NCBI GenBank assembly: GCA_963815675.1
Contig: CAWFHP010000006.1
Span: forward strand, 448,360-512,359
Direction: 5' to 3'
Length of the DNA: 64,000 nt
Source of the DNA: an uncultured Acidobacteriota bacterium
Lineage (GTDB): Bacteria; Acidobacteriota; Vicinamibacteria; Marinacidobacterales; SMYC01
Both the position numbers and the translations under genes were made by a program. Shown one piece after another: positions 1,543 through 59,234 of the stretch (position 1 is the stretch's first letter; every line of letters starts with the position of its first letter). The notes below the pieces were generated by a model that was given only the letters and a program-made list of their open reading frames with translations, searched no databases and was not told the origin of the DNA.

Positions 1543-3336
1543 TCATCGCGACGTCACCACCGGCAAGATCAGCGCAGATGGGTGGTCGGCGTCGTGATAG
1601 ACGCGGTTGGTGGCGGACACGTATCTCTTCGCCGTCGCCTGTTCCGCCCCGGTGTTCAGGTTGCGGTCGAAGCGGGGGAAGTTGCTGCTGGAGACCTCCA
1701 GACGCAACACATGCCCTTTCAGGAAGACGTTGCTCGTGGACCACAGCTCGATGACGAATTTGTAGATCTGCCCGGGATTCAAAGCGCCGGTTTCTCCTGC
1801 GAGTCGCGGTATCGGGCGCGAACTGATGCCTTCCGTCAGATTCCGCGCGAAGCCATCGGGCTCAGACGTCCACCAGTTTGGCGTCGAAATCCGTATCCAC
1901 CGCGGAGGACTCGCGAAGAGCTCGAGGAGGACCGGTCCCGGTGACTTCGGTGTCCGGGTAAACGGGGCGTCGGTGTAGACCAGGACGTCGTCGCGAGCCT
2001 CGACCGGACGCTGATCGCGCGGACCCGGCGCGAGGTGTATCCCGTCGCAGCAGAGGGGACCACCAATCGTCGGCGCTGGATTCGAAGGGTCGTACAGGTA
2101 GTGGTCGAACGGTTCCGGAGCGCGGTGCGACCGTGGAAAGACTGCCGTCGCCGCGGACGGAGGTCGCCTGGCCTCCCGCCGAATGCAGGTAGTATCTCGT
2201 GCTCTCCGCGCGCGCCAGCGGCCAGTCGTCCTCCTCTCGCCACTGGTTGGTGCCCATGACGAAGATCTTCACCGGCTTGCCGGCGAACTCGTTCTTCGCG
2301 CCCTGGAACAGGTACTGGTACCACTTCAGCGTGACGTCGTTCTCGTCGAATTCGGCGGCGGCCGCTCCGAAGTCGACGTCGCCGATCTTTCGTCCGTTCG
2401 CCGGCGTGTCCGCCGATCGATGACGAGGAGGTGCTGGCCGCGACGGGCCTCTTCGCTACCGCCATGCGCCTTGATTCCGAGGTAGTTCCGCAGCGATCCC
2501 CCCTGGAAAATGTCGTACCAGGCCGCGACCGACAGCACGGGCACGGTGATGTTCTCGTAGTGCGCTTCGATGGAAAGCGGTTTCCAATAGTCGTCGTCGT
2601 CGGGATGCGCGAGCCAATCGAGATAATACGGGGCCAGTTCGTCGATGGAGACGGGAGCGGCCGAGGGCGCGGAGAAATTGAAAAGCGGGATAGCTCGGTG
2701 AGAGGAAGCGTCCCGGCGCTCCCGCGACGGCGTCGGTTTTCGTCGCGACCGTTCGATTGAGAAGTGTCTTGAGCCAACCCTGACGTCCAGGACTGGTTGA
2801 ACCATTGCTCGAAGGCGCCGCCCTGATACGTCCATCCGTCGTGATAGTTGCTGGCGGTCACCACCGGGCAAATGCCGGCCAGGTGCGGCGGGTGCGCGAT
2901 GGCGGCAAGCATCTGGGTGGCGCCCACATAGGAGCCGCCCCACATACCCACCTTCCCGTTCGAGTACGGGAAGAGACGCGGCCCACTCGACCGTATCGTA
3001 GCCGTCGTCGGATTCGTGCCGGAACGGGTACCACTCTCCTTCGGACGAATAGCGTCCCCGGACGTCCTGGACGATCGCGACGAATCCGTGCGCCGCCGCA
3101 TCGATGGCGAACGGAGCTTCGTTGCGCTTGTCGTACGGAGTGCGCTGAAGAAGTACCGGAAAGCGGCCGTCCACGCTCGGCCGATAGATGTCCGCACGGA
3201 GGAACACACCGTCGCGCATCCTCGCTCGAACGCCGACCTGAAGCGTCACCTCGTATGTCTCGGCCGCCTCCATGACGTTGGCCGTCACCACCAGGGTAAT
3301 GACGGCCGCCCACAGCCTGCCGCTGCGATGATTCAT
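1543..3336 (-). pseudogene. CocE/NonD-family hydrolase (S15 X-Pro dipeptidyl-peptidase-like), disrupted
   Basis: Homology is split over at least 4 minus-strand frames (ORFs 2326..3402, 1836..3209, 1862..2272, 1543..1782). The N-terminal signal peptide, RTPYDKR, GYDTVEWAA, MWGGSYVG and the C-terminal IELWSTSNVFLKGHVLRLEVSSSNFPRFDRN motifs are all present but not in one frame. Confidence 0.7.
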
Positions 3337-8533: not shown

Positions 8534-10502
8534 TCAGATCGAGTGGACCTTTTCGAGCTCGGGCTTGCGATCGCTCTCCGTCGCCCCCGCTTCTGATGCA
8601 GGCCCGGGCGCCTGTTCGCCGACGGGCTTCCGCACGATCCCGTCGAAGAGGAACATCGACGAGTCGGCGAGGACGCCCTGGGCGAGGCGATAGCCCATGC
8701 GGTCGGTGTTGCGGCCGACGCCCCGGAAGGCGTCCTCGATCCGCAGTCGGGAGTTCGCGCAGAAGTGCTCGACGAGAGCGAGGACTTCTTTACGGTCGAC
8801 TCCCTCCCCGATGAGCGCCTGCGCCCGGGTGGCGGAGGCGGCCTGGGCGAAGAGCTCGGTGCCGACATCCACGAATCGCGCGAGGAGCATCTGCTCCCGC
8901 TCGAGCTTGGGTCCGTACTTCACCATGGCGTAGAACATCTTCCGCGCGAGCTTCTTGCTGGTGCGACCGACATAGCGCATGTGAGAGGCGAGCGCGCGGT
9001 CCATCCCGGCGGTCGGAACCATGGCGGGAAGCGAAGGTTCGCGGATACCAGCTGAGGTAGAACAGGCCCGCCTTCATCGCGGCAGCGAAGCGCCGGCCGA
9101 AGGGAAGCTTCGGGTTCATCACCGCCCCCGCGACCTTCAGGTGCGGGTCCATGGCCTCGCGGGCGATGAAGAGGCGCATGATCTCCGTCGAGCCCTCGAA
9201 TATCCGGTTGATGCGGGCGTCGCGCATGGCGCGCTCGATCATGAACGGCTTGTCTCCGCGGGCCCTCGAGGACTGCGCGGTCTCGTACCCCCGGCCCCCG
9301 AGAATCTGCATCGTTTCGTCGACGATGTTCCAGGCGGCCTCGGTCCCGAACATCTTGGTCATCGCCGCCTCGACACGGATGTCCGTCTTCTTGCGGTCGA
9401 CGAGCGCGGAAGTGAGGTAGGTCATGGACTCGATCGCAAAAATCGTCGAGGCGATGCGGGCGATCTTGTCGGCGATGGCGGCGTGCTTGCCGATGGGAGC
9501 ACCCCACTGCTCGCGCTCGTTGGCCCACCCTTTCGCCATTTCGAGCGAGCGCTTCGCGAGCCCGACGCAAACGGCGGGGAGCGTGATCCGGCCGGTGTTG
9601 AGCGTGGTGAGCGCGACCCGGAGCCCCTTGCCTTCGCCGGCAATGATGTTCTCCCTCGGTACTTTCACGTCGGTGAAGCGAAGGACGCCGTTATAGAGCG
9701 CCTTCAGACCCATGAACTCGCATCGATGCACGACTTCGATGCCCGGTGACGCGGCATCGACGACGAACGCCGTGATTTGATCGCGCTTGCGCCCGTTCAC
9801 CAGTTTCGCCGGGGTCTTGGCCATGACGACGATGAAGGCGGCACGGGTGCCGTTGGTGCACCATAGCTTCTCACCGTTGATGACGTAGAACTTCCCGTCC
9901 TCGGTCGGCTCGGCCGTAGTCTCCATCCTTGCCGGGTCGGAGCCGACTCCCCGCTCGGTGAGGGCGAAAGCCGAGATCTCGCCCGCCGCGACCCTTGGAA
10001 GGAAACGCTTCTTCTGCTCCTCGGTGCCGAAAAGGAGAAGCGGCTGAGGGACTCCGATCGATTGGTGAGCGGAGAGCAGAGCGGAAAGGTTTCCGCAGTA
10101 GCTCCCCAGAAGCACCGCCGCACGGGTATAGACCTGCTGGGTGAGCCCGAGCCCGCCGTACTCGCGCGGGATCTTGATCCCGAACGCTCCGAGAGCGCGC
10201 AATCCCTCGATGACCCGTTCCGGGATCTCGCCTTCGCGATCGATGCGGTCGGGGTCGACCTCTTCGCGCAGGAATCGTTCGAGCTCGGAGAGAAACCGGC
10301 GCCCGCGCTCGTCCTGGTCGGAGGCGAGCTCGGGATAAGGATGGACGAGACGAAAGGGAACGTCACCCATGAACAGGGCGCCGGCGAAAGTCGGATACTC
10401 CCAGAACCCCTCGCGGGACGATTCGGTGAGCTCGAAGGCAGCGCGTTTCGCCTCCGACATCTTCGACGTGTCGAGGACCGGCTCGTTCGGTTGCTGGCTC
10501 AT
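8534..10502 (-). CDS. Acyl-CoA dehydrogenase (long form with C-terminal extension); apparent frame change near 9020-9060
   Basis: ORF 8790..10607 carries the ACAD core with the true ATG at 10502 (MSQQPNEPV...). The C-terminal extension (MVPTAGMDRALASHMRYVGRTSKK...) continues in a second frame, 8534..9022. Confidence 0.75.
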
Positions 10503-11152
10503 TTGGGTTCTCCTTCGTTCCTTTCGGGAGCGACGTGCCGCGTGAGCATCTCGGTCACTTCGTCGCGGGCCACGTCGAGGTCGATCGACTCCTCGTCGAA
10601 GACCCATTGGAGCATGACGCCGTCGATGGCGGCTTGAACGAGAGACGCCGTCGTCCGTACCGGGAGCGGCCGCATCTCTCCAGTCTTCCGTCCTTCTTCG
10701 AGAATGTGGGCGAGATAATGGCGCGACGGCTCGTACGCCTCCGCGTTCAACGAGCTCTCGTCACCCGCGCCGTACCGCTGGCCCCAGAGCGCGACGAGGG
10801 CGACATAGCCGACGCGGTGTGACTTCATGAACTCGAAGTTGGCGGCGACGTAGGCCCCGAGCTTTTCGAGGGCCGTCCCCGCGGAGTCGACTCGCTCCTT
10901 CACGAACTCCGCCGGTTTGCGCAGCAGGCTCCGCAGGATCTCGTCGAGGAGCTCCTCCTTCCCGTCGAAGTGATAGGAGATGACTCCCTTACTAATCCCG
11001 GCTTTCTTAGCAATTTCGGCGAGAGAGGCTTGTGAATATCCGTGCGCGGCGATGGTTTCTATGGCGGTCTCTACGATCTGCCGGCGCCTCGCCTCCTCGA
11101 TGAAGCTCGGCTTCTTCTGACCGATCGACTCAATATTTGACTGCACGGCCAA
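10499..11152 (-). CDS. TetR/AcrR-family transcriptional regulator
   Basis: 217 aa with an N-terminal HTH (SLAEIAKKAGISKGVISYHF). Its stop overlaps the ACAD start by 4 nt, suggesting a regulator-fadE-like operon. Confidence 0.85.
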   Translation of the reverse strand: MAVQSNIESIGQKKPSFIEEARRRQIVETAIETIAAHGYSQASLAEIAKKAGISKGVISYHFDGKEELLDEILRSLLRKPAEFVKERVDSAGTALEKLGAYVAANFEFMKSHRVGYVALVALWGQRYGAGDESSLNAEAYEPSRHYLAHILEEGRKTGEMRPLPVRTTASLVQAAIDGVMLQWVFDEESIDLDVARDEVTEMLTRHVAPERNEGEPK

Positions 11153-11259
11153 ATTTTAGCCCAGACGGCCATTCGACGTCAAGCGTTGGAAGAGACCACA
11201 AGAACCGGTCTTCGTGACTGAGGTTGGCGTATGCATTAGAATCGCAGTAGAATTCTATT

Positions 11260-11550
11260 GTGATTACCATATCCATCACGGTAGATGAACCCCTACTGAA
11301 GGCGGTCGACCGGATCGCGCGAGAATCGAAACGCACTCGGTCCGACGTCTGTCGGTTGGCGCTACGGAAATGGCTGGATGCGCAACGGGAGGCCATCCTC
11401 GTGCGCGAAGAGCGGGAGGCCTATCGGGCTCACCCAGTGACACCGGACGAGTTCGACGACCTGATCACCGCGCAGACGATTCACCTCTTCGAGGACGCCC
11501 CACTCGAGCCTGGCGAGCGTGACGAGCCTCCGGATCGGGACGAACGTTGA
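11260..11550 (+). CDS. Ribbon-helix-helix (CopG/MazE-like) antitoxin
   Basis: 96 aa with an N-terminal RHH (ITVDEPLLKAVDRIARESKRTRSDVCRLALRKWL) and an acidic C-terminal tail. The 4-nt ATGA overlap couples it to the downstream toxin gene. Confidence 0.75.
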   Translation: MITISITVDEPLLKAVDRIARESKRTRSDVCRLALRKWLDAQREAILVREEREAYRAHPVTPDEFDDLITAQTIHLFEDAPLEPGERDEPPDRDER

Positions 11551-11864
11551 CGCGTGCGGAGATCTGGCTGTACCGATTCAAGACTCCGGACAAACAGCGA
11601 CCGGTTCTCATACTCACTCGTCCGGAGATGATTGCCGTTCTGAACACCGTCACTGTGGCAGCACTGACCCGAACGATCCGTGGAGTCGCGAGCGAGGTGG
11701 TGGTAGGTCAGGAGTGTGGGCTCAAAGAGCGGTCCGCCATCAACCTCCATCATCTCTTCACGATTCCGAAGTCGGGGCTCCGCCGTTTCGTCGGCACCGT
11801 GCCCGAGCCCACAATGAAAGCCGTGCGCCGAGCTCTGCTGCACGCGCTGGCGTTCGAATCCTGA
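11547..11864 (+). CDS. MazF/PemK-family endoribonuclease toxin
   Basis: 105-aa PemK/MazF fold sequence (IWLYRFKTPDKQRPVLILTRPEMI..., LHHLFTIPKS). Overlaps the RHH antitoxin gene by 4 nt. Confidence 0.75.
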   Translation: MTRAEIWLYRFKTPDKQRPVLILTRPEMIAVLNTVTVAALTRTIRGVASEVVVGQECGLKERSAINLHHLFTIPKSGLRRFVGTVPEPTMKAVRRALLHALAFES

Positions 11865-11915
11865 GCGATTCTCCAACTCGAGCCTCCACCGCCTTGATTC
11901 CGCGTTTCGCTGCCG

Positions 11916-14375
11916 TCAGTCGTAGCGGAGGGCGCGGATGGGCTCGATGGCCGCGGCGCGGCGAGCAGGCAGATACGTGGCGAGGGTAGCGACGGCGGTG
12001 AGGAAGAGCCCGACGGACGCGAACGTCACTGGGTCCGTGCTGTCGACTCCGTAGAGGATCGCCGACATCAGGCGCGTCGCGGCGAGAGCGCCGAGGGTGC
12101 CTATCGCGACCCCCAGAAGCGTCATGACGAGACCCTGTCGTACCACCATGCGGCTCACATCCGAGCGCGCGGCGCCGAGGGCGATGCGCACACCGATCTC
12201 CCTCGTCCTTTGCCCGACGATATATGAGATCACGCCGTAGATCCCGATGGACCCTAGAAAGAGCGCCACCCCCGCCGCTATGGCGAGAAGCATCATCGTA
12301 TAGCTCGTGCGCGCCAACGAACGAGAGAGGAGCTCGTTTCCGGTCCGGATGCTGATCAAAGGAAGATTCGGATCGAGCGACCAAACGGTGTCGCGCACCG
12401 ACGTCGAGAGACTTCCCGGCGAGACCGTCGACCGCAAACAGAGGGTCATGGTGCGCACGGCCCAATCGTCGTTGTCTTCGCCGAATCCGACGACGGGATA
12501 ATAGATCATCGGGCTCACGGGTTTTTCGAGGCCGTCGTCGTGCACGTCGCCGACGACGCCTACGATCGTGTACCAGTGGTTGATTTTCCGGGGAAGGCCA
12601 GGTGTGAGGCGTTTTCCGAGAGGGCTCTTTCCCGGCCAGAACGTCTCGGCGAGTCCGCGGCTGATCACGACGGCGCCCGTTCGCTCCTCGTGGTCGCGCC
12701 GCTCCAACGTCCGACCCTCCTCGAGAGGAATCCCCATCGCCTCGAAGTAGCCGGACGCCGCCCAGTTGGTGCGGACCACGGGCGGGAGCTCGCCCTCTCG
12801 AACGGGAAAATCTTCGAGGGCCATGCCGTTGTTGGAGTCCGAGCCACCCATGGGAAAATTGCGGATCGCCCCCACCCGGGAAACGCCCGGCAGGGCCCGA
12901 AGCTCGTCCATCAGCTTCTCGTAGAATCGCGCGGCATCGTCCGGCGTCGCATAGCTCGCCTGCGGAAGAGACAGGCGCACCGTCAGGAGATTGCCGGCCG
13001 TCCAGCCGGGGTTCACGTTGCGGAGCGACCAGAACGAGCGCGCCATCAAGCCCGAACCGACGAGAAGAACGAGGGCGAGGGCGACCTGGGTCACGACGAG
13101 CGCGCTGCGCACGAGATGAGTCTGTCGTCCGCTCGAAGCCCGGAGGCTACCCTCCTGGATTGCACGTACCAGATTCGGCCGTCGATACCGCGCGACGGGA
13201 ATGAGGCCGAAGACGAGACCCGCCACAAGTGAAATGGCGGCGGCGAAGGCGACGACCGGCGCGTGGATGCCGACCTCGTGGAGGCGCGGAATGGTCTCGG
13301 GGCTCATGGCGAGAAGCACCTTGAGCGCGGCGAAGGCGATGCCGATGCCGAGAATTCCGGCGAGAGTGGCGAGCACGAGACTCTCGGCGAGAAAGTGCCG
13401 CAGCAGGTCACGACGGCTCGCTCCCAGCGCGACCCGGAGGCCGAGCTCGCGCTGCCTTCCCTCGGCGCGGACGAGAAACAGATTCGCGACGTTGGCGCAG
13501 GCGATGAGGAGAACGACGCTCACCGTTCCCAGAAGGATCCAGAGCACGCGAGACACGTCTCCCACGACGTCCTTCATCAACGGCGTCACGAAGGCGCGGA
13601 GCTGGGCGTGCTCGAGGATCGCTGCGGTGAACTCGCCTGGATAGATGTCGGGGATGCGGTGTAGGAGACCGTCGAGCTCCGCGGTGGCCGATTCCGCCGA
13701 TACGCCGGGCTTCAGTCGGCCGATCCCCTCCTGGCTGAAGTTCACCTTGCCCAGGTCCTTCGGATCGATGACGTGGGGAATCCAGATCGCCGTCGTCTCA
13801 CCCGGGTAGGTGAATCCGTCCTTCATCACTCCGATGACCTGCCAAGGAGTTGCGTTGAGCTGAATCGTCCGTCCGACGATTCCAGGGTCCCCGCCGAAAC
13901 GGCTCCGCCAGAAAGAAAAACCGAGGATCGCGACCTGGGGCGCGCCGGGATCGTCCTCCGCCTCGTCGAAGGTACGACCGAGGAGAGGACGAACGGCGAG
14001 CGTCGGAAAGAGCGAGGCCGTGGCTTCGGCCACGTCGACCTGGGCCGGCTCTCCCACCCCGGTCAAATTCATCGAGTAGGGGCCCTCGGACAGCCCGACC
14101 CCTTCGAAGGACTGCGCGAGGTCGTGGTAGACGGTGTAGGTCGTGTCGGATTGCTGGACTTGCGGAAATCCGACGCCCGGCGCGGAGTGCCAGAGGCCGT
14201 AGAGCCTTTCGGGCTCGGGATAGGGTAGAGGCTTCAGGAGAACGCTCTGGACGATGCTGAAGATCGCGGTGTTCGCCCCGATCCCGAGGGCGAGGGTGAA
14301 GATCGCGACGATGCTGAATCCGGGCGTCCGGACGACTTTCCGCCACACGAGCTTCATATCGTTTCCCAGGTTCAC
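11916..14375 (-). CDS. ADOP-type ABC transporter permease (MacB-like periplasmic domain + FtsX, duplicated)
   Basis: Intact 819-aa ORF. N-terminus typical of Acidobacterial duplicated orphan permeases. Two FtsX-like 4-TM modules. Confidence 0.85.
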   Translation of the reverse strand: MNLGNDMKLVWRKVVRTPGFSIVAIFTLALGIGANTAIFSIVQSVLLKPLPYPEPERLYGLWHSAPGVGFPQVQQSDTTYTVYHDLAQSFEGVGLSEGPYSMNLTGVGEPAQVDVAEATASLFPTLAVRPLLGRTFDEAEDDPGAPQVAILGFSFWRSRFGGDPGIVGRTIQLNATPWQVIGVMKDGFTYPGETTAIWIPHVIDPKDLGKVNFSQEGIGRLKPGVSAESATAELDGLLHRIPDIYPGEFTAAILEHAQLRAFVTPLMKDVVGDVSRVLWILLGTVSVVLLIACANVANLFLVRAEGRQRELGLRVALGASRRDLLRHFLAESLVLATLAGILGIGIAFAALKVLLAMSPETIPRLHEVGIHAPVVAFAAAISLVAGLVFGLIPVARYRRPNLVRAIQEGSLRASSGRQTHLVRSALVVTQVALALVLLVGSGLMARSFWSLRNVNPGWTAGNLLTVRLSLPQASYATPDDAARFYEKLMDELRALPGVSRVGAIRNFPMGGSDSNNGMALEDFPVREGELPPVVRTNWAASGYFEAMGIPLEEGRTLERRDHEERTGAVVISRGLAETFWPGKSPLGKRLTPGLPRKINHWYTIVGVVGDVHDDGLEKPVSPMIYYPVVGFGEDNDDWAVRTMTLCLRSTVSPGSLSTSVRDTVWSLDPNLPLISIRTGNELLSRSLARTSYTMMLLAIAAGVALFLGSIGIYGVISYIVGQRTREIGVRIALGAARSDVSRMVVRQGLVMTLLGVAIGTLGALAATRLMSAILYGVDSTDPVTFASVGLFLTAVATLATYLPARRAAAIEPIRALRYD

Positions 14376-15232
14376 GGAGCGTCGCCCTCCTTCTTCTCCT
14401 CACTAACGGAACCGGGCCCGGACAAGTTCGCGGTTTCTCGCCGCCCGACGAATTCGTCCATCGAGGCGTTGATCCCCATGAGCTCGGCGATGGAGTCGAA
14501 CCAGGAGACGGGAAGCAGTCGAATCCAGGCGATGGTCGAAACCATCGCGGGCATGAGCAGCTTTCGCTTGTCGGACTCGATGGCGCGGAGGATTCTCTCC
14601 GCCGCCGTCGTCTCGTCCAGGATGGGAAGAAGGAGGGGAAAGCGGCTCCTCGCTCCCTCGAACATCCCCGTCGCGATGTAGAACGGGCAAACGACCGTCG
14701 TCCGGATCGAGGGGGCTAGCTTCCGGAGCTCCATGCGCAGGGACTCGTCGAATCCGACCGCGGCCCACTTCGTCGCGCAGTAATCGGAAAGCCGCGGCAC
14801 CCCGATGAGACCCCCGGCGGAGGCGATGGTGACGATATGGCCCCGGTGCCGCTCGATCATCCCCGGGAGAAACGCCCGCGTCGTCCAGAAGAGCGACAGG
14901 GCGTTCACCGCGAAGCTCTTTTCGATGGTCTCGTCGGGGATCTCGAGAAGGCTCTTTCCGCTGACGACGCCCGCGTTATTAATGAGAACGTCGACGGGTG
15001 AAGCCCGGAGCGCGGCCTCGGCGACAGCCTTTCGATCCGAGACATCCACGACGGCGGTCGCGGCACGTGAGCCAAGGCTCGCGACCTCCGCCGCGACGGT
15101 CTCGAGACCGGTGTGGTTCAGATCCCACAGCGTGATCGTTCCACCTCGCCGGGCGACGCCGAGGGCCATCCGCCGACCGATACCGCTCGCGGCGCCGGTG
15201 ACGAGGACGTGGCTTCTGGCAAGCTCGGTCAT
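14372..15232 (-). CDS. SDR-family short-chain dehydrogenase/reductase
   Basis: Rossmann TGAASGIGR motif and the YxxxK catalytic dyad (YCATK). 286 aa. Overlaps the downstream permease gene by 4 nt. Confidence 0.85.
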   Translation of the reverse strand: MTELARSHVLVTGAASGIGRRMALGVARRGGTITLWDLNHTGLETVAAEVASLGSRAATAVVDVSDRKAVAEAALRASPVDVLINNAGVVSGKSLLEIPDETIEKSFAVNALSLFWTTRAFLPGMIERHRGHIVTIASAGGLIGVPRLSDYCATKWAAVGFDESLRMELRKLAPSIRTTVVCPFYIATGMFEGARSRFPLLLPILDETTAAERILRAIESDKRKLLMPAMVSTIAWIRLLPVSWFDSIAELMGINASMDEFVGRRETANLSGPGSVSEEKKEGDAP

Positions 15233-15305
15233 GCCGGCACCGATTGTACTGCCCGGGCGTTAGAATTTTCTGAAACCTTCTCCCGTTTCGCCGGTATGAG
15301 GGGGT

Positions 15306-15932
15306 ATGAAAGGGCTCGCCCCCGTGGAAAGGATCGGCATGACGTCAGCGACGCCGAGCGCGGTTCCGGAACGAGACGTGTCCGAGGACGCCGGCTTGCT
15401 TCTCGTGGCCCACCGGAACGGCGATGGGGACGCCTTTCGAAAGCTCGTCGAGCGCTACCGGCGGCCCGTCTTCTCCTACCTGTTCCACTGCGGGGTCCCC
15501 GATCCCAATCGCGACGACCTCTTTCAGGAGATCTTCGTCCGCATCCACCGGAGGGCGTCGAGCTACCAGGCGGCGCGTCCCCTTCATCCCTGGCTTTTCA
15601 CCGTGGTCGCGAACGCGGTGCGAAGCTACTTCCGAAAGCAGAAGCGGTTCTCTCTCTTCGCCGGCCCGCCCTCGGAGAGCGTGAGAGACGACGCTCCCGA
15701 CGGCGAGACGGTGGCCTCCGCGAGAGAAACGACCGCGTGGCTCGAGCGCGCCATCCAGGGACTTCCCCTTCCGCAACGAGAGGTCCTGCTTCTCGCCGCC
15801 GTCGAGAACCTGCCTCTGAGCGACATCGCGTCGATCCTCGAGCTGCCCCTCAATACCGTGAAGACGCACCTGCGGCGCGCGCGTCTGCGGTTGATCGATG
15901 GCTACGAGCGGCGCACGGGAAGTGCATCATGA
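15306..15932 (+). CDS. ECF-family RNA polymerase sigma factor
   Basis: Sigma-70 regions 2 and 4 are present (DLFQEIFVRIHRR; LPLPQREVLLLAAVENLPLSDIA). Its stop overlaps the anti-sigma start (ATGA). Confidence 0.8.
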   Translation: MKGLAPVERIGMTSATPSAVPERDVSEDAGLLLVAHRNGDGDAFRKLVERYRRPVFSYLFHCGVPDPNRDDLFQEIFVRIHRRASSYQAARPLHPWLFTVVANAVRSYFRKQKRFSLFAGPPSESVRDDAPDGETVASARETTAWLERAIQGLPLPQREVLLLAAVENLPLSDIASILELPLNTVKTHLRRARLRLIDGYERRTGSAS

Positions 15933-18452
15933 GCGACATTCCAGAGACCTGCGAACGAGTTCGAGAAGAGCTGGCCGTCGTCGGCCGCGTACCGGAGGAC
16001 GAAGCTATCCGGGAGCACGTCGCGTCCTGCGAGGACTGCGCGCGGTTCGTCGAGAAGCTCACGGCTCTCGAGGCCGGGCTCCAAACGCTCGGCAGAGAGA
16101 GACGTCTCCGACGAGACGGTGAGCCGCCTCCTCGCAAGCCCCGAGCTCCGCAAACTCCCCTCCGTTCGATGGCAGTTCTGGGCCGCCGGGCTCGCCGCGT
16201 CGCTGCTGTTGATGGTCGTGTCCTGGCGTGCGGAGTTCTTTCAGCAGCGAGCGGTTTTGCACGAGCCCGAAATCGCGGCGTCGGCCGCGAAACGACCCGA
16301 GGCGGAGGTCCGTCTCCGGCAGGACGACCGAAGCGAGCTGAAAGACGAAAAGGAGCAGGGGTTGCTGGCGCTGCAGGCTCAGCGCGATCGGGCGCAACGC
16401 CAGAACGGTGCGGCCGCTGGCGTCGTTTCGGCCGGAAAGAAAGATTCCGTGGACGCGCCCGCTGAGCCTGAGCCCTCCTTCGCCCAACGCGACGTCGGAG
16501 TCCGTAGACAAGCTCGCGAAAACCGAGGAGGCCACGCAAGCAAACCGGATAAATGGTTTCGCCTTCAAGGGCTTCGTTGGCAGCTTCGCGGAGGGACAGG
16601 CTTCCTCCATGAACACTCCCGCGCGCCGCGCACAGAAAGAGCCTGTGTATCCCGAAAAGGCGATATCTGCCCATGTCCAGGGGACGGTGGTGCTCGAAAT
16701 CACCCTCGACCCCGAGGGGAACGTCACCGGCGCACGAGTCGTTCGATTGGTCCCGGGCCTCGACGAGGCCGCCCTGGACGCGGTCCGCCAGTGGAAGTAC
16801 GAAACCTCGGATTCGGACACGCCCCGCAGGTTCAACGTCTCCGTCGGAGTTTCGGCTTCCCGAAGCGCCGAAGCCACCGAAGCCACCGGATTTGGGCTCG
16901 GCGCGCTCCTTCCTCGAGGAACGGGACCGAGTGGAAGGCCTGCCCTTCGTCGACGCGCGAGGCTACTGGGCCAACACGTACATTCCCGGAGACGCGACTT
17001 TGCGGCGGCTCGCGGCCCGGCTCGGGAGCGAGGCTCCGGAGCTCCCGCATCGAGACGCAAGACCCGCCGCCCTTCCTCTCGATTCCATCCGCGACGTCGG
17101 CGCTCTCCCTCACGCTCCACGCCGATCGCGCCGGGATCACCGGGAAGAGCCGGCTCCTGGTGCAGGTGGGAATTCGCGCCGCCGACGGCGAGTCGCGGCG
17201 GCGGCCTCCCATGAACGTCGCCATCGTGCTCGACCTTCCTTTACGAAGCTCGCCCGAAGACGCGAAGGCGACCCGTGCCCTCCTCGAGGCGTTCGAAAGC
17301 GCGCGGGAGCCTGGCGACAATTTCCGTCTCCTCGCGACCGGACCCGGTGGAGGCGAGATTCTCTCTCCCGAGTCGTTTCGACGCGGCGCTCTAATTGTGG
17401 CACTCCGGGATCTCGACGAGCGCACGCCTGGTCCTCCGGAGACGTCGTTCACCGAAGCGGTCGCCCTTGCTTACGAGAACGTTCTCGCGGAAGACGACCC
17501 TACCCAGCCGCTCGGAACGAGCCTGGTGCTCGTGGTCTCGCGGCGAGCGCACCCGGCAGAGATTGAGGAGTGCCTCCGGCTCGCGAGCCAGGGAGCCATC
17601 GGGGGCGTCACGCTGAGCGCCGTCGACCTCGGTGCCGGTGTCCAGGATGCCGCGAGCGAGGCGAAACGTCTGGCGCTCGCCGGGCAGGGCCGCGCCTACG
17701 CGCTCGCGGAACGGCAAGATGCAGAAGCGACTTCCATCGTGGACCGGGAGCTCTCCGCGGCGAGCCGCACCGTGGCCCGCGCCATCCGGCTTCGCATCGA
17801 GCTCGCGGAAGGCGTCCGCCTCGTCGACGTTCTCGGCTCCGCTCCCTTGAACGTGCGCGAAACGGAGCGGACGCGAGCGGAGGAGCGGTCGATCGACCGC
17901 AGGCTCGCCCGCAACCTCGGTATCGAGGCCGACCGGGGAAAGGACGAGGACGGGATCCAGATTGTCATTCCCGCCTTCTACGCCGGAGACACGCACAGCA
18001 TCCTTCTCGACGTCGTCGCTCCCGGGCCCGGCCCCATCGCCGAAGTCACCGCGCGCTACAAGGACCTGGTCCAGCTCGAGAACACCGTCGCGCGAGCGAG
18101 CCTCGCGCTTCCCCGCTCGGAGGAAGCGGCTGGTCCTCTCGAGACGAGCGTTCTGAAGGACTACCTCGACTACCGCGTCTCGAAAGCGCTCGGTGACGCC
18201 TCGGAGGCGCTCCGCTACAAGAACGTGGCGCAAGCCGGCAGGAGCCTCGAGAACACCCGGGGTCTTCTGGCGGGGCTGAGCGTCGCGGTCCCGGCACTGA
18301 CTCACGATCGAGACGTCGAGAGGGACATAGGACTTCTCGACCGCTACCACGATTTCCTCGCCCGACCCGTCCAACCGAACTCGATTCAGAATCTCTACGA
18401 CTCCCTGCTCTACGCCTCCTCCCTCATGAGGCTCTGGCAGCCCGTTTCCTGA
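15929..18452 (+). CDS. Anti-sigma factor (zf-HC2) with a TM helix, a TonB-C-like domain and a C-terminal YfbK-like vWA module; several apparent frame changes
   Basis: N-terminal zf-HC2 (CEDCARFVEKL), then a frame change at a (GA)n run near 16100 into the TM helix (WQFWAAGLAASLLLMVVSW). The TonB_C region (PVYPEKAISAHVQGTVVLEITLDPEGNVTGARVV...DAVRQWKYE) lies in a third frame, 16408.., and the vWA module (PPMNVAIVLD...) returns to frame 0. Confidence 0.6.
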
Positions 18453-18465
18453 AAGAGGTATCGAC

Positions 18466-21400
18466 ATGAAAAAAAGAGGGACAGGCACTCATTTCGTCCT
18501 CGCGACCATGGTCGCGCTCTCCACGCTGGCGGCGAGTGGCATGGGCTTCGCACAAGAGGACCCACCGGGCCAGGTTCGATTGCCACTCGACGTCTACAAC
18601 CAGCTCGTGGACCAATCGCGCAATCCCGTCCCGAGGCCTCGCCCAGCCCCGGTGAACTTCGCTCTCGGGAGCGCGTCCGTGAACGTACGGGTCGCGACGA
18701 CGGAGCCGAGGGCGAGCGCCGAGGTGAGCGTAACCCTCTCGAATCGAGGTCTTCGAGAACGAGTGGGTGCTGATACCGGTGCTCGCACCAGGAACTCCGG
18801 TCACCCGCGTGCTGCTCCAGGGAAATCCCGTTCAGCTCGTTCCCACGGCCGAGGGGCTCTCGTGGGGGACCAACGTCAAAGGCTCCTACAGCATGGCGCT
18901 CTCCTACAACGTCGATGCCGCTTCCACGGGAAACGGCTACGTGCTCGCGGTACCTGTGCCCGAGGCCTCGTCGATTCAGCTCGTGGCGTCCCTTCCTGGA
19001 ACCGGGCTCGACGTCTCCGTCATCCCCGCGGCCGGCGTTCGCACATCGGCTTCAGGCTCCGCGACGAGCGTTCAAGCGACGATACCGTCCACGAGCGGAG
19101 TCCAGATCGCCTGGCACGCTCCCTCGGGGAAACTGCCCTCGATCGCGCGAGCTCTCTACCGAGGCGAGCTCTCGGACGGCTCGATCCTCTGGCGGGCCGA
19201 GCTCCAGGCCGACCTCTTCACCCAGGAGACGGCGATCCTCGCGCTCCTGCCGAGGACGGTCACGCTGGTGAGCCTCGCCATCGACGGCAAGGAGGCGCCC
19301 ATCCTCGTCGAAGGCGACCGCTTCGCGACACTCGTCCGCGGCCAGGGCTCACACCGCGTCGCGATCTCCTTCCTGACCCCGGTCGTTCAGGAGAACGGAC
19401 CACCTCGCACCGATCTGTTCGTGCCCCAGGTGCCGGTATCGCAAGTCGAGCTCGTGCTTCCGGGAAAAAAGGACGTCTCCGCCGCGCCTTCGGCGAGCGT
19501 CACGACGCGGTTGCGGGGAGGCACGACCGTAGCCACCGTTCACGTCCCGCTTACCGAGAAGGTCTCGCTTTCCTGGTCCGAAGCGATTCCCGAAATGGCG
19601 CGCCACGAGCTTCGGGCCAACGCGTCCATTTACCACGTGATCCGAGCCGAAGAGGGTGTCCTCTACGCGCGGGCGCACGTCGTCTACGAAGTGCAGCACG
19701 GCGGGACGAACCGCATCGAGCTTCAGCTTCCGCCCGCGGTCGAGGTGAACCAGGTGAGCTCCGAGGCGGGTGCCGTCGCCGACTGGAGAGTCGAGACCGA
19801 GGGGAATCGGCGCGCTCTTCGCATCTTTCTCAATCGTGAGCTCACGTCGGAGCTCAACCTGGTCGTCGAGTACAATCGTTCTCTCGGCTCTTCGGGTACC
19901 GAGGCCCTTCCGCTCTTGAGTGCCCTCGGTGTGGGACGCCAGCGAGGGATGGTCGCTCTCGTGTCGAGCCGCGACCGCGCTCTCAATCCCGCGGAGGATG
20001 GCGGCGCCACGCGCGTCGGTGAGAATCAGCTCCCTGGCTTCGTGCGGGACACCATCGACCGGACAATCGCGCACACCTTCAAGTACGTCGACGCACCGCC
20101 TTCGATGAGCGTCACCGCCTCCGCTCCCGAGCGAGCCGCAGGTCGATTCGATGCCGAGGTCGACTCTCTCCTGAGCATCGGTGAAGTCACGCTCGAGTCC
20201 TCCGCCAGCATCGACGTACACGTGAAGTCCGGAGGGGTGGATCGCGTCGAGCTTCTCCTTCCCGCGGGTGCCAACCTCCTCAATCTCGTGGCGCCGTCGC
20301 TCCGTACCCACCGGGTTGTCGACGGGGACCGCCCGGTCGTGGAGGTGGAGTTCACCCAGGAAATGGAAGGCGACTTCCGCATCGAGCTCAGCTACGAGCG
20401 CCTCCTGGACGAGAACGAGTCCGAAGTCCCCGCGACCACCGTCCGGGTCCGAGGGGCGGACGTGGAGCAGGGAAGAATCGCCATCGAGGCCTCGAGCGCC
20501 GTCGAGGTCGCGCCCCGGAGCGTCGAGGAGCTCTCCCCCATGGACGTACGCGAGCTTCCACGTCAGCTCGTCCTGCGCACGTCGCAGCCCATCCTCCATG
20601 CGTTCCGCTACGTGCGCGCGGATCCCGAGCCTCGACTCACGCTCGGCGTGACCCGTCATCCCCTGGTGGCGGTGCAGGAAGCGGTCATCGACCGCGCGGA
20701 GCACCGGACGCTCTTCACCCGGGACGGCCTCGCCGTCACCACGACCCGGTTTCAGGTACGCAATACTCGAAAACAATTCCTGCGGGTGCGGCTTCCCGAG
20801 GACTCGGAGATCTGGTCCGTCTTCGTCGCGGGAAAGGCGGAAAAGCCGGCTCTCGACGAGTCGGACGGCGCCAAGCGGTCGTACCTCATCAAGATCGTGA
20901 GCTCGACCGACGGTTTTCCCGTGGAGCTCGTCTACGCGACGCGGGTCTCCTCCATGTCGTCCCTGGGGACGGTGCGCGCTCGCCTCTCGAGACCGGACCT
21001 CCTGGTGACCACGTCTCACTGGGAGCTCTACGTCCCCGACGGATTCGACTACGGCAGGCCGTCGACGAACATGACCCTCCTCATCGACGGCGGCCGGGTT
21101 ACGAGAGACGCGATGGCACGCGAGATGGCGACCGCCGCCGATGCCGCGCAGACAGCCAACGTCGCCGAGCCGTTCCGGATCGACGTGCCGTCGTCGGGCC
21201 GCCGCTTCGCGTTCGAGATGCTCTACGCCAACCACGGCGATCTCGACGCCTCGGTCTCGATTCCGTACACGTCTCGGGGCGGCGCCGCCTTCGGTCAGAT
21301 CGTGAGCCTCCTGGGAATCTTCCTCGCCTTCGTCACGCTGAGACTCTGGCGTGCGAAAGAGGCGCGATACTCGATTCAGACGAAGCTGGCAACCGCGGCG

Positions 21401-21562
21401 GCCGCGGCGCTCCTGGTACTGGTCCCGGTTGGGGTCTACGGGGTGAGCTCGACACCCGCTCTGGTACTCGCGTTGGCTCTCCTGGTGCTCTCCGTCCGTC
21501 CGGAGCTGAAGCGCGCTCTCGATCGTTTCCGGTCGTCGAGAACGGCGGAGCAGAACGGCTGA
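18466..21562 (+). CDS. Large (~1030 aa) secreted hypothetical protein with two C-terminal TM helices; apparent frame change near 18740
   Basis: Signal peptide in ORF 18466.., then the 931-aa ORF 18767..21562 with a beta-rich body and C-terminal hydrophobic helices. Likely co-transcribed with the sigma/anti-sigma pair upstream. Confidence 0.55.
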
Positions 21563-23707
21563 CGACGCGGATATCGACCTGGGGGGCCTTTCGCTCTCCT
21601 ACGCAAACGGCAGGATATCGCGCAAGGGGCGTGCCGGGCCGACGTATAGCCCTGCGCAAAGTCGACGCCGGCCTTCTGGAGCAAAGCGGACGGTCTCGTC
21701 GTCGGTCACGAACTCCGCAATGGTCTTCTTGCTTCATGCCGCGGGCGATGCCGACGATGGCCTGGACGACGAGCTGGTCCATGGGGCTCTCCACGAGACC
21801 GCGGATGAAGTCGCCGTCGATCTTGAGGTAGTCGAAGGGCAGGTCCTTCAGGTAGTAGAAGGAGCCGAAGCCGGCGCCGAAGTCGTCGAGGGCTAGCCGG
21901 CAGCCGCAGGCGTGCAGCCGGTGGGCGAAGTCCTTGGCCTCCTCGATGTTCGCGATCGCCGCGGTCTCCGTCAGCTCGAAGACGAGCCGCGACGGATCGA
22001 TCCCGGCCTCGCCAGCGCGCCTTCGGTGAGCGCCGGCGACCGGGATTGCCGATCGATTTGCCCGAGAGGTTGACATGGAGCGCCAGTCGCGCGGCCGGCG
22101 CGCTCGTGCTCGGCGATGAGGTCGATCGCCTGGCGCGCGACCCAGCCGTCGATGGCCTGGATCAGCCCGAAGCGCTCGGCAACGTAGAGAAAGGTGCTGG
22201 GCGTGAGCGGCTCGCCGCCCTCGTCGTCCCGGAGGCGCAGCAGCACCTCGTACTGGTCGTACCTCGTTCGTCCGCAGGTCGAGGATCGGCTGGCAGTAGA
22301 GGACGAAGCGATCCTCCTCGAGCGCCGTGCGGAGCTGCTCCGCCTCGGCCTGCCGCGCGGACACCGCGCTCCCGGCTCCCCGGGGGGCGTACAAGGCGAA
22401 GCGGTTTCGGCCGGCCTCCTTGGCCTCGTACATTGCCTGGTCGGCGCACGCCAGCACCTCTACCGCCGAGAGGCCGTCGAACATGGCGAGCCCCACGCTG
22501 GCCGTGATCCGGATCGACCGATCCCCGAGCACCGCGACATGCTGGCTCAGGGCCTTGACTGTCCCGTCGGCCACGACCTGGGCCTGGTCGGCATCGGTCT
22601 GCGGGAAGAAGCACGGCGAACTCGTCTCCGCCTAGTCGCGCCAGGAGGTCCGTCTGGCGCATGCGATGCCTCAGAGGCGCTCGCCACGCCCTTGAGCAGG
22701 TCATCGCCCGCCTTGTGGCCGAAGGTGTCGTTGACATCCTTGAAATTGTCCATGTCGATCTCGAGCACGGCGGCCGGAGCTCCGTAGCGCGCGGCCCGCT
22801 CGGCCTCCCGGGAGAGCTCTTGCTCGAAACGGCGCCGGTTGAAGAGCCCGGTCAGGAAATCGTGGTCGATCAGGTACTCGAGGCGTCGCGCAAGCTCCTT
22901 CCGCTCGGAGATGTCTTGGACCTGGGAGACGACGTAGAGGAATCTGTCCTCGGCATCGCGGACGAGCGAGACGGTCACCAGCGCCCAGAAGTAATGGCCT
23001 CATGGCATGGCGGTACCGCTTCTCGATCTGGTAGCTGGGGATCCGCGCCGTCGAGCAGCTCGTGCCAAGCGTCCTCGTCGAGATCGACGTCTTCGGGATG
23101 GGTATGGCATCGCAGCGTCGTTGCCTTCACCTGCCCGCCGTGGCCCGGTGATCCGGCAGAGCGCATCGTTCACTTGCAGCCATCGGCCCTCCAAGTCCAC
23201 GAGCGCCATGCCGATGGGCGCGTTGGCGAATGCGCTCTCGAACTGGGCCTGCAGCTCGCGCAGCCCCTGTTCGTCCTTCTGGCGTTTCTTCTCGACGCGG
23301 TTACGTTCGAAGATTCGGCGGCGAAGCTCCGCGTTGGCCACTGCGAGCTCTTCCTCCGTCACCTTGCCGCCGCGAATGGCGTCCTCGAATGGCGCTCCTG
23401 TAGAGGCGAGGGGAACAATGCGACCACGCAGGGACTGCTCGAGCCCATCAGGAGCGAGGCGCAAGGTATTCGCGAGACGCTCCAGTCGGCTGATCGCCTG
23501 CTCGATGGCCTCCTGTTTGCGCCCCGTGCTGTCATGCCGCAGCGCAGCGCCGGTGGCTTCGAGCTCCTGGACCCAACTGGCCACATCCCCATCGAGCTCA
23601 ATCCGGACGTTCCGGATCCGCTGTTCTATCGACGGCAGCGCCGGGGTTTTCCGTGCAGATTTCTTGGAACGCCGAGGCTCACGTTCTGATCGACTGTCCA
23701 TTGACAA
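21436..23707 (-). pseudogene. Coiled-coil-PAS-GGDEF-EAL signalling protein, fragmented over at least 5 frames
   Basis: The PAS (FESAFANAPIGMALVDLEGRWLQVND), GGDEF (DHDFLTGLFNRRRFEQEL; RLGGDEFAVLL) and EAL (FVLYCQPILDL; LVFELTETAAIA; LKIDGDFIRGL; AQGY) pieces lie in ORFs 23000..23707, 22547..22978, 22162..22737, 21333..22574, 21971..22246 and 21436..21684. Confidence 0.6.
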
Positions 23708-23923: not shown

Positions 23924-25783
23924 ATGAAGATGACTGCGCCGACCGACCGCCGCCGATTCTTGCGTACGAGCGTCATCGGAGGCCTCGCGTTGACGCTGTC
24001 CGGCAAACGCTCGGCCCAAGGAGCCAGTTCCGGGTCGTCGTGCCGGGAACCTCTGCTTCCTCAGGAAGCTCCCGACCCTCGCTCCCGTCTCCGGCAGCTC
24101 GAGAGGACACGCAGCCTCTATATCTACGATTACGAGCGAATTCCCTCGCTGCCCATGGTGGAAAAGGTGCCTCCCCCGGACGCGTTCTCGCTCCCGTGGC
24201 TCCTCCAGGCGGGAGATCGCGTGGGGGACCTCGTCCGAAACTTCACGACCAGGCCCGGCATGACGGGGGCGGTCGCTTGGCGTCGCGCCGCCGAGATACT
24301 CTCGCGCGGCGCCGAGCTCGACGCGGGCCGGCTACTGGATGTCGCACGGCAATCGGCGTCTGCTCGAACGGGGCTCGATCGCGATCGCCCCCAGAGCCTG
24401 GACGACTACGCGGCGCTGTTTCGAACCATCGAGCCGCCCGGAATCATCGAGACTTTCCAGGACGATCGTGTTTTTGCGCTTCAGCGCGTGGCTGGGCCCA
24501 ATCCACTGGTGATTCGACAGGTCGCCGGACTCGACGACCGGTTCCCGGTCACGGAAGCGATGTACCGCTCCGTTCTACGGCACGACCGGCTCGATGCCGC
24601 GGCCAAGGAAGGTCGACTCTATCTCGCCGACTATGGCCAGCTCAACGGCGTCGAGAGAGGATTCTACCGCGGAGCCCCCAAGTTCCTCTCCGCCCCGCTC
24701 GCTCTGTTCGCGGTCGATCGACGGACGGGCGAGCTCGTTCCGATTGCGATTCAGTGCGAGCAGGAACCGGGCCCCGACAATCCGATTCTCACGAAGGATG
24801 ACGGTCACGCCTGGTCGATGGCCAAGACCCTCGTCCAGATCGCCGACGCCAACCTGCACGAGGCCGTCAGCCATCTCGGTCGCACGCACTTGTTCATCGA
24901 GCCCTTCGTGATCGCCACCGAGCGTCAGCTCGCGGAGAACCATCCTCTCCGACTCCTCCTGCGACCCCACTTCGAGGGAACGCTCGCCATCAACGAGCTC
25001 GCCCACAGACAATTGCTGGCTCCCGGCGGATTCGTGGACGAGCTCCTCGCGGGAACGCTGGAAGCCTCCTTGAGGCTCGCCGTCGAAGGAATACGAACCT
25101 ACGCCTTCGACGAAGCGATGCTGCCGAAAGCACTTCGATCGCGCGGAGTCGACGACCCCGGCGCTCTCCCGAGCTACCCCTATCGCGACGACGCGCTCCT
25201 CTACTGGAACGCGATCCGCGCCTGGGTACGCGACTATCTCGGGATCTACTATCGATCGGACGCGGATGTGCGGGACGACTTCGAGCTCGCCGGCTGGTAT
25301 CGGGAGCTCGTCGCTGCCGACGGCGGTCGTGTCACCGGTTTCGGTCGGGGTGACTCCATCGGAGGTCTGGACGAGGTCATCGATGCCGCCACCCTCCTCG
25401 TTTTCACGTCGAGCGTTCAGCACGCGGCACTGAACTTCCCTCAGTTCGATCTCATGACGTACGTCCCCAACATGCCGCTCGCGGGCTTCGCCCCGGCGCC
25501 CGCGTCCAGGGACGCCGACGAGCAGGACTTTCTCGATCTGCTTCCACCGATTCCTTCCGCGCGTCTCCAGCTCGTGATTCTCTATCTGCTGGGAACGGTC
25601 CACCACACGACGCTCGGCATGTATCGGGAAGAGGAGCTCTGCGATCCCCGGCTCCGGCGACCTCTCGCGAAATTTCGACACGAGCTCGATCGGATCGGCC
25701 GAATCATCGAGCAACGCAACCGCGTCCGCCCGCCCTACCCGTTCCTCGAGCGCCAGGGAATTCCGCAGAGCATCAATATTTGA
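23924..25783 (+). CDS. Lipoxygenase (Tat-secreted, bacterial mini-LOX)
   Basis: Intact 619-aa ORF. Tat signal (RRRFLRTSVIGGLALTL). Exact LOX iron-site spacing H-x4-H-x4-H-x17-H-x8-H (HEAVSHLGRTH...NH...PH). C-terminal isoleucine (IPQSINI). Confidence 0.85.
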   Translation: MKMTAPTDRRRFLRTSVIGGLALTLSGKRSAQGASSGSSCREPLLPQEAPDPRSRLRQLERTRSLYIYDYERIPSLPMVEKVPPPDAFSLPWLLQAGDRVGDLVRNFTTRPGMTGAVAWRRAAEILSRGAELDAGRLLDVARQSASARTGLDRDRPQSLDDYAALFRTIEPPGIIETFQDDRVFALQRVAGPNPLVIRQVAGLDDRFPVTEAMYRSVLRHDRLDAAAKEGRLYLADYGQLNGVERGFYRGAPKFLSAPLALFAVDRRTGELVPIAIQCEQEPGPDNPILTKDDGHAWSMAKTLVQIADANLHEAVSHLGRTHLFIEPFVIATERQLAENHPLRLLLRPHFEGTLAINELAHRQLLAPGGFVDELLAGTLEASLRLAVEGIRTYAFDEAMLPKALRSRGVDDPGALPSYPYRDDALLYWNAIRAWVRDYLGIYYRSDADVRDDFELAGWYRELVAADGGRVTGFGRGDSIGGLDEVIDAATLLVFTSSVQHAALNFPQFDLMTYVPNMPLAGFAPAPASRDADEQDFLDLLPPIPSARLQLVILYLLGTVHHTTLGMYREEELCDPRLRRPLAKFRHELDRIGRIIEQRNRVRPPYPFLERQGIPQSINI

Positions 25784-59046: not shown

Positions 59047-59174
59047 CCATTCGACATGAAGCTTCGAGGGACGTGGACGACCGGGCTCACTAGCGGGGCC
59101 ACGGCTCGTTCCATGCCTCGATAGCCGCGAGCCGTGGCCGCAACCCGAGAGGGCGGGCGACCACACGAGAAGTA

Positions 59175-59196
59175 GGCGCCTCCCGGCGCCTTTTTT
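59175..59196 (+). terminator. Rho-independent terminator-like hairpin (GGCGCC-TCCC-GGCGCC + T6), either the lipid-kinase terminator or the terminator arm of a thrS-like leader/attenuator
   Basis: Perfect 6-bp GC stem and U6 tract. A 12-bp perfect stem-loop (59096..59139) lies immediately upstream. Confidence 0.6.
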
Positions 59197-59234
59197 GTTG
59201 CCCTCCCCAATCCACGACCAAATGGAGGGAAATC

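Follow-up and report, generated by a model that had tools for sequence, protein, structure and literature searches.

What does an uncultured Acidobacteriota bacterium encode behind one of its extracytoplasmic function (ECF) sigma factor genes, one protein or several, and what could the product sense? The question is raised by positions 15306-21562 of a 64,000-nucleotide stretch of contig CAWFHP010000006.1 (assembly GCA_963815675.1; G+C content about 64%), here called the window, where an earlier note made from the letters alone had proposed an ECF sigma factor, a multidomain anti-sigma factor interrupted by a frame break, and a large exported protein. We find a three-gene signalling unit (a sigma factor, a membrane-bound inhibitor and a large membrane-anchored partner) that is real and recurs in several bacterial phyla. 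On balance, we favour the reading that these genes form an operon whose products make up a three-part signalling unit of the envelope, with the partner as co-sensor, and that the frame breaks are assembly errors. Much of bacterial signalling runs through ECF sigma factors, and only for a minority of their groups is the input device known. Coordinates refer to the window, and all features of the three genes lie on the + strand.

The three genes and their products

The first gene (15306-15932) is intact and encodes an ECF (group 4) sigma-70 factor of 208 amino acids (aa). It contains the sigma2 and sigma4 regions only (Pfam Sigma70_r2, 3.9e-13, 49 bits; Sigma70_r4_2, 1e-15, 57.5 bits) and reaches 82 bits with TIGR02937, well over the family cutoff of 42.9, so that both databases bear out the earlier assignment. 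The protein is 84% identical to its orthologue in the locus L001 of a close relative, matched in a single tblastn segment. An ATG at 15332 is an alternative start, and its ribosome-binding site, GGAAAGGA, is better placed.

The stop codon of the sigma factor gene and the start codon of the second gene overlap by four bases (ATGA, 15929-15932). The coding frame of this second gene shifts by +1 four times according to a plot of G+C content at third codon positions (GC3), three-frame translation, and tblastn searches with homologues. With the four breaks removed, the gene (15929-18452) encodes a protein of 839 aa, very close to the 840 aa or so first estimated. Full-length homologues exist in two close relatives, namely P0001 from locus L002 (849 aa, 67% identity, 100% coverage) and P0002 from L001 (858 aa, 65% identity; coverage of the two is 99-100%), and in about 20 further sequences, all from Vicinamibacteria or other Acidobacteriota metagenomes. 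The gene order is the same in L001, L002 and the window: a divergent adh_short gene, the ECF sigma gene, the anti-sigma gene overlapping it, and the gene for the large protein. Since the orthologues are intact and stand in this order, the sequences indicate that the fusion of anti-sigma domain, TonB_C domain and von Willebrand factor A (vWA) module in one protein is genuine. The separate TonB and vWA genes that would have spoken against a fusion do not occur in L001 and L002, where the fused gene is intact. Genes flanking the unit in the window match L002 in unbroken single segments with 84-97% identity.

The third gene (18466-21562) begins 13 nucleotides (nt) after the anti-sigma stop codon, not 14 as previously given, with a ribosome-binding site (AAGAGG) 7 nt before its ATG. 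In L001 and L002, the spacing is also 13 nt, and the gene is intact and encodes 1031 or 1036 aa. Reconstruction and comparison with L003, a third close relative, give a protein of 1031 aa for the window after removal of one extra A at 18742. A Sec signal peptide (aa 1-30) is followed, in the AlphaFold2 (AF2) model of the protein (predicted local distance difference test, pLDDT, 82), by about eight beta-sandwich domains and, near the carboxy terminus, two to three hydrophobic helices (940-958, 975-993 and 992-1010; about 21275-21496). The size and export signal of the predicted 1,030-aa exported protein are thus upheld, with the qualifications that the gene is frame-broken, a point missed earlier, and that the helices are two or three rather than clearly two. 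More than 335 homologues were found. Neither the partner nor its homologues have a Pfam or NCBIfam match, and NCBIfam also lacks a model for the carboxy-terminal module of the anti-sigma factor. Foldseek finds domain-level likeness only, to Ost1/ribophorin I, integrin alpha legs and alpha2-macroglobulin.

Upstream of the sigma factor gene lies an ECF-type promoter-like motif, GAAAC-N17-GTAT (15272-15297; in full TGAAACC-N16-GGTATGAG), which is the sole match in the whole window. The full form is kept in the six closest loci, and the looser pattern G[AG]AAC-N15-18-GTA precedes the sigma gene in 36 of 52 loci, where we estimate that chance would give about one or two. No sigma-70 promoter or terminator patterns were found within 15000-22000, which together with the single upstream motif fits an autoregulated three-gene operon. 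The motif is therefore probably the promoter of an autoregulated operon, as far as sequence can tell.

The amino-terminal domain of the anti-sigma factor (about aa 1-75, 15929-16153) is predicted to be cytoplasmic and of the zinc-binding anti-sigma type. In the AF2 model of the protein (mean pLDDT 74), it forms a helical bundle with pLDDT 87-92, and it carries the motif H30-x3-C34-x2-C37 together with a fourth, upstream ligand, C8. Across 27 aligned family members, H30, C34 and C37 do not vary and C8 is at least 90% conserved, and each of the four reaches at least 90% in 50 more distant representatives. Pfam zf-HC2, the family originally named for this domain, stays below its cutoff of 22.2 (14-17 bits, the window copy at 17), so that the zinc ligands stand while the family match does not. 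DUF3379 matches 21 of the 27, with displayed scores of 22-28 bits that are under the cutoff of 33.2, and a profile search of the PDB gives weak matches to RsiW (5wuq) and RslA (3hug).

A single transmembrane helix is predicted at about aa 81-105 (16170-16244, WQFWAAGLAASLLLMVVSW) from the AF2 helix and from reading the sequence. Its mean hydropathy is about 1.4 by our own estimate, and no segment of the protein reached the threshold of 1.6 that we used; the helix is the only candidate for a membrane span, and a linker that is disordered in the AF2 model follows it.

Within the periplasmic part lies a TonB_C domain (about aa 230-310, 16618-16858; PVYPEKA...QGTVVLE...WKYE), as the earlier note had said. 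Pfam TonB_C scores 59-60 bits against a cutoff of 24.6, TIGR01352 scores 66 bits in P0001, TonB chains in the PDB are matched, and the pLDDT of the domain is 86-94. Just past it, at 16860-16888, a 9-bp tandem repeat (CCGAAGCCA, 3.3 copies) encodes PKPPKPP; relatives carry a shorter version at this site (PEAPKPKDL, PETPRPPDL), which suggests that the length of the linker changes in frame.

The remainder of the protein is a conserved carboxy-terminal periplasmic module (about aa 324-839, 16901-18449), delimited by alignment, AF2, Foldseek and hhalign, with GYWANTYxPGD among its alignment invariants. According to AF2, initial strands are followed by an alpha/beta domain of vWA type (about aa 427-610, 17211-17762), a beta-sandwich (about aa 613-726, 17769-18110) and a four-helix bundle (aa 738-833, 18144-18431). 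Foldseek searches of the PDB return proteins with a vWA domain plus beta-sandwich at E-values of 4e-16 to 5e-18, among them ArnB/ArnA (8s05, E 5e-18), the Catenulispora vWA protein 4fx5, Sec23/24, ITIH1 and integrin beta3. A profile of the module aligns by hhalign with residues 193-410 of Escherichia coli YfbK (90% probability, E 1.6e-6), a range that spans the vWA core and the first strands of YfbK_C. These results agree in pointing to a vWA fold homologous to that of YfbK.

The kinship appears to be distant. Pfam vWF_A (PF12450) and YfbK_C (PF12034/DUF3520) are matched in none of the 27 members at E<=1 and in none of the 50 representatives at E<=0.001, while YfbK itself scores 113 and 222 bits, respectively. 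Pfam VWA is found in only 4 of the 27. Accordingly, the relation to YfbK is a remote one that covers the vWA core and the first YfbK_C strands, rather than family membership, if profile comparison is a guide. Two points count against even this: the Foldseek TM-scores are only 0.43-0.50 (normalised to the target), and the link to YfbK depends on one hhalign result and on fold similarity at these low scores. The DxSxS metal site is degenerate. Where YfbK has DTSGS, the window reads VLDLPLRSS, and homologues read VLHLPNS or VLDAKPN. The YfbK-type vWA module proposed earlier thus holds as to fold and remote homology, but it has no Pfam match and has lost its metal site. Of the domains for which searches had been advised, TonB_C was found, whereas VWA, vWF_A and DUF3520 are unmatched in the window copy.

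A recurring gene pair and its relation to known systems

How far does this arrangement extend? When one genome per species was scanned, the carboxy-terminal module turned up at 71 loci, from Acidobacteriota, Myxococcota, Bradymonadia, Gamma- and Alphaproteobacteria; one of the carriers is the isolate Marinicella meishanensis (L047). Of these loci, 67 have 1.5 kb or more of downstream DNA, and in every one of them a homologue of the large protein comes next on that strand, with a median gap of 119 nt between the two matches. An ECF sigma factor gene was detected upstream in 44 of 52 loci, so that the adjacency of sigma and anti-sigma genes, seen as the ATGA overlap in the window, is the common state. 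The trio whose co-occurrence had been suggested for checking is therefore common in related and distant genomes alike. Apart from the trio, a neighbour search found no conserved gene; even the divergent adh_short gene is present in 14 loci only.

An exhaustive profile search returned 733 cluster representatives (clusters at 50% identity) at E<1e-30. In these proteins of 750-1150 aa, the module is always carboxy-terminal. The plan of the family, as read from its sequences, is a zinc anti-sigma domain, a membrane helix, a variable linker with an optional insert, and the conserved module.

TonB_C belongs to the optional part. It is present in 11 of the 71 loci and in 10 of the 50 family representatives, where CarboxypepD_reg, RcpC and PDZ are rare other inserts. 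About 80-85% of family members lack it and keep the remaining module, while all close Vicinamibacteria relatives have it. TonB_C is thus, by its distribution, an optional, lineage-specific insert in the variable linker. Public records label the anti-sigma homologues as "TonB family protein". This label is misleading, in fact wrong. The helices WQFWAAGLAASLLLMVVSW in the window and WGAGLGVAAALVLMVVT in P0001 are without the histidine of the SxxxH type of TonB, and without this residue for coupling to ExbBD the protein is not a TonB; moreover, its amino terminus is an anti-sigma domain instead of the transducer helix, and some 530 aa follow the TonB_C domain, which is the one feature truly common to both. 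In a separate set of proteins (P0032, P0034-P0036), TonB_C is fused to BlaR1-type M56 peptidase and Ser/Thr kinase domains, which suggests that signalling proteins of several kinds make use of it as a periplasmic module.

The closest catalogued type is ECF289 (Casas-Pastor et al. 2021; PMC7826278). In the catalogue's description of its anti-sigma factor, to which our comparison is confined, the gene lies directly downstream of the ECF sigma gene and the product has an extracytoplasmic vWA domain and a domain of DUF3520/YfbK_C type. The position of the gene and the extracytoplasmic vWA part are shared with the family described here. As judged against that description, however, our family lacks Pfam DUF3520 (0 of 27), has a recognizable VWA in 4 of 27 only and has lost the metal site, and it adds a helical bundle, a strictly linked partner gene for about 1000 aa and, in the lineage of the window, TonB_C. 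Our literature search returned no paper besides PMC7826278 that mentions ECF289, or DUF3520 together with anti-sigma factors, and it found no paper on the family of anti-sigma factor and partner.

With RsrA, ChrR, RslA and RsiW, the family has in common the amino-terminal helical domain with H-x3-C-x2-C and an upstream cysteine, and the overlap with the sigma gene. Its periplasmic part of about 730 aa, however, is far larger than in these studied examples, and zf-HC2 stays below the cutoff. E. coli YfbK (vWF_A, VWA and YfbK_C) has a beta-sandwich after the vWA domain, in the same order as here. Unlike YfbK, the present protein has no metal site (DTSGS of YfbK aligns with DLPLRS) and no Pfam vWF_A or YfbK_C match; its module is joined to an anti-sigma domain and closes with a helical bundle. 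A comparable three-part logic would be that of CnrYXH and RseA/RseB, in which a sigma factor and an anti-sigma factor in the membrane are encoded together with a periplasmic protein, one that in the present case would be expected to act on the anti-sigma factor. This likeness is functional only; there is no relationship in sequence or fold, and the partner here has about 1000 aa and is membrane-anchored.

The family comprises at least 733 clusters in several phyla, each tied to a partner of about 1000 aa without Pfam or NCBIfam family. A conserved and unstudied gene pair of this kind is a testable lead, for example in the cultured M. meishanensis.

Possible input to the sigma factor

Together, these data suggest a model for signalling by the three proteins. 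In the resting state, the sigma factor would be held back at the membrane by the zinc anti-sigma domain. On the periplasmic side, the vWA module would bind the large partner, and this partner would be a co-sensor, comparable to CnrX or RseB for their anti-sigma factors. If the partner or the envelope changed, the anti-sigma factor could be released or degraded, and the freed sigma factor would transcribe its own operon from the GAAAC-N17-GTAT promoter. In some lineages, TonB_C may give an additional contact to the outer membrane or cell wall.

The central step of the model, the role of the large protein as periplasmic co-sensor for the vWA module of the anti-sigma factor, is likely on the evidence of gene linkage and domain type. 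In the main rival view, the 1031-aa protein does no sensing and is only what the system produces, an envelope or surface protein under its regulation, and the vWA module senses something else. We regard this as the less probable course, but as one to be taken seriously. In what appears to be an operon, the gene would be co-transcribed downstream of the sigma and anti-sigma genes, as are many effector genes of ECF sigma factors, and adjacency weighs against our own proposal in that it is equally expected of an output. On the other hand, a partner that follows the module in 67 of 67 loci across phyla, where no other neighbour is conserved, is linked more tightly than is usual for a regulon member, and a vWA domain without metal site suits binding between proteins.

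A bolder version of the co-sensor model likens the pair to an integrin. The metal-site-less vWA and beta-sandwich module would pair with the membrane-anchored beta-sandwich array of about 1000 aa as a two-chain sensor that gates an ECF sigma factor, the vWA protein standing for the beta chain and the partner with its leg domains for the alpha chain, each with membrane helices. We put this forward tentatively, as a possibility that we rate as clearly weaker than the co-sensor model as such. If true, the pair would represent an undescribed class of ECF input device that crosses phyla, with a linker that takes up additional contact domains, TonB_C for example, in individual lineages.

It is improbable, in our estimation, that TonB_C is the main input. 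According to this idea, which extends the suggestion of the earlier note that the signal comes from an outer-membrane or TonB-box partner, the domain would bind the TonB box that an outer-membrane transporter exposes when loaded with its ligand, in a reversal of FecR-type signalling. A true TonB_C with PxYP and QGTVV motifs is indeed present in the periplasmic part, and it is kept by all close Vicinamibacteria relatives. But the 11 of 71 loci and 10 of 50 representatives that have it are a minority, and the others keep the remaining module. No TonB-dependent receptor (Plug, TonB_dep_Rec) was found among the large open reading frames checked in the window, nor in the gene tables of L001 and L002, and the membrane helix has no histidine in the window or P0001, where one would be expected for coupling to ExbBD. 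There was likewise no match to a FecR domain in the anti-sigma factor or in the family members scanned, which argues against a system of FecR/FecI type. As most members are without TonB_C, capture of a TonB box cannot be the core mechanism, although it may occur in the TonB_C clade.

Frame breaks and neighbouring genes

Should the interrupted frames be read as biology? The first break is due to one extra base near 16100, in the (GA)4 run GAGAGAGA (16095-16102). Here the window has GGCAGAGAGAGACGTC (GGCAGAGAGAGAC) versus GGCAGCGAG-GACGTC in L002 and GGAAACGAG-GACGTC in L001, that is, the relatives read AGCGAG-GAC or AACGAG-GAC and have no GA repeat. The second break, from frame 0 to frame 1, is placed no more exactly than 16457-16486 in the variable linker, by the ends of tblastn segments against P0001 and P0002. 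The third, at 16846, is an extra G (GTCGGAG versus the implied GTCGAG) between RRFNVSV and EFRLPE, where the tblastn match ends at 16845 and resumes at 16847. The fourth, at 17084, is an extra T (CTCGATTCC versus CTCGA-TCC) between RPAALPLD and PSATSALSL, seen in the nucleotide alignment, as is the extra A at 18742 in the partner gene (TCGAATCG versus TCGA-TCG in L003). All five are +1 shifts, and three are seen as one extra base in alignments with relatives. Over 3.3 kb, the window and L003 share 95.4% identity, with the frame-breaking A as the sole indel. The pieces of the anti-sigma frame stay open, without in-frame stops, and are 63-78% identical to the orthologues (about 40% where the variable linker is included). 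Programmed frameshifting was considered and rejected, as the relatives read straight through at all four sites of the anti-sigma gene.

The window as a whole shows the same pattern. Frames were segmented with a self-trained codon model; a version based on GC3 minus GC2 was too noisy. The codon model flags about 25 frame changes on the same strand that are not gene boundaries, nearly all of insertion type; by our own count from the segment labels, it is about 27 of 29 shifts. At least nine other genes are interrupted by such breaks. The sites include the Peptidase_S15 gene (1552-3315), the acyl-CoA dehydrogenase gene (9032), 28511, 28758, a binding-protein gene (32024), the PspA gene (32888), 51554, 53486, 54991, the DAGK gene (58467) and a short-form gene resembling that for threonyl-tRNA synthetase (59418). 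When the frames are joined, Pfam domains continue over the four junctions tested, those of Peptidase_S15, PspA, DAGK and, with a weak match, Phosphonate-bd. The minus strand carries a PAS-GGDEF-EAL gene (about 21600-23701) with about eleven frame changes, of which ten are of insertion type. Overall, there is about one insertion-type break per 2-3 kb, unevenly spread. Bacterial mutation, by contrast, favours deletions.

Taken together, the clean frames, the intact motifs, the number of genes hit and the bias toward insertions speak for consensus errors, and at the sequence level the five breaks are almost certainly single-base insertion errors of an error-rich assembly, not biology. The alternative is that the breaks are real and the anti-sigma and partner genes are pseudogenes, in which case the sigma factor would be permanently free of its inhibitor or the module would be in decay. 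Three observations weigh on that side. The breaks are clustered rather than uniform: 9852-15929 is free of them, the anti-sigma gene has four in a stretch of 1.2 kb, and the GGDEF-EAL gene has about eleven. The break in the partner gene is also present in the deposited public assembly, as P0037 equals the truncated 931-aa open reading frame of the window. Lastly, the neighbouring region is rearranged, with GGDEF-EAL in place of DTW. Since an error process of this kind would not be uniform, real decay of some genes keeps a small share of the probability. It would, however, require at least ten pseudogenes in 64 kb with otherwise perfect domains, open pieces as similar to orthologues as those described above, and shifts that are nearly all insertions where deletions would be favoured, all while L003, 95% identical, is intact. 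At about one insertion-type error per 2-3 kb, frame breaks in this window are not to be read as biology.

The frame break that the earlier note had placed in a GA run does lie at GAGAGAGA, but it is one of four in the gene and a single extra base. The note's proposal that slipped-strand switching at this run could disconnect sensing from the sigma factor can be dismissed as extremely improbable. It is true that the break is inside the run and that a further GA would likewise bring back the frame. But the run consists of just four units, L001 and L002 lack it, it is not enriched (4 copies of (GA)4 in the window versus 7.0 expected by chance), and three other breaks in the gene and about 20 elsewhere lie outside repeats, which does not fit a phase-variable contingency gene.

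The threonyl-tRNA synthetase-like gene (59100-60474, + strand) has the catalytic core and the anticodon-binding region, without the amino-terminal TGS and editing domains, and it may be a second, short-form threonyl-tRNA synthetase. We had considered it as an essential gene whose break would argue for error, but dropped the argument, since the short form may be a paralogue.

Downstream of the unit, the close relatives L001, L002 and L003 have a DTW-domain gene where the window has the PAS-GGDEF-EAL gene (21600-23701), which indicates that this spot varies between strains. In L001 (8222-14334), the module and the DTW gene are followed by RDD, SpoIIM, DUF4350, MoxR-type AAA ATPase and DUF58/VWA_2 genes, a second vWA-containing set nearby that is not conserved across loci.

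Two further genes are of note. An intact lipoxygenase gene (23924-25783, + strand) encodes 619 aa, an enzyme type uncommon among bacteria; PF00305 is matched by its L003 orthologue, with which it shares 90% DNA identity. Upstream, a small gene pair (11296-11861, + strand) sits between TetR and MacB-type genes and ends in a PemK-type toxin gene, whose 78-aa product is 97% identical to the L002 copy.

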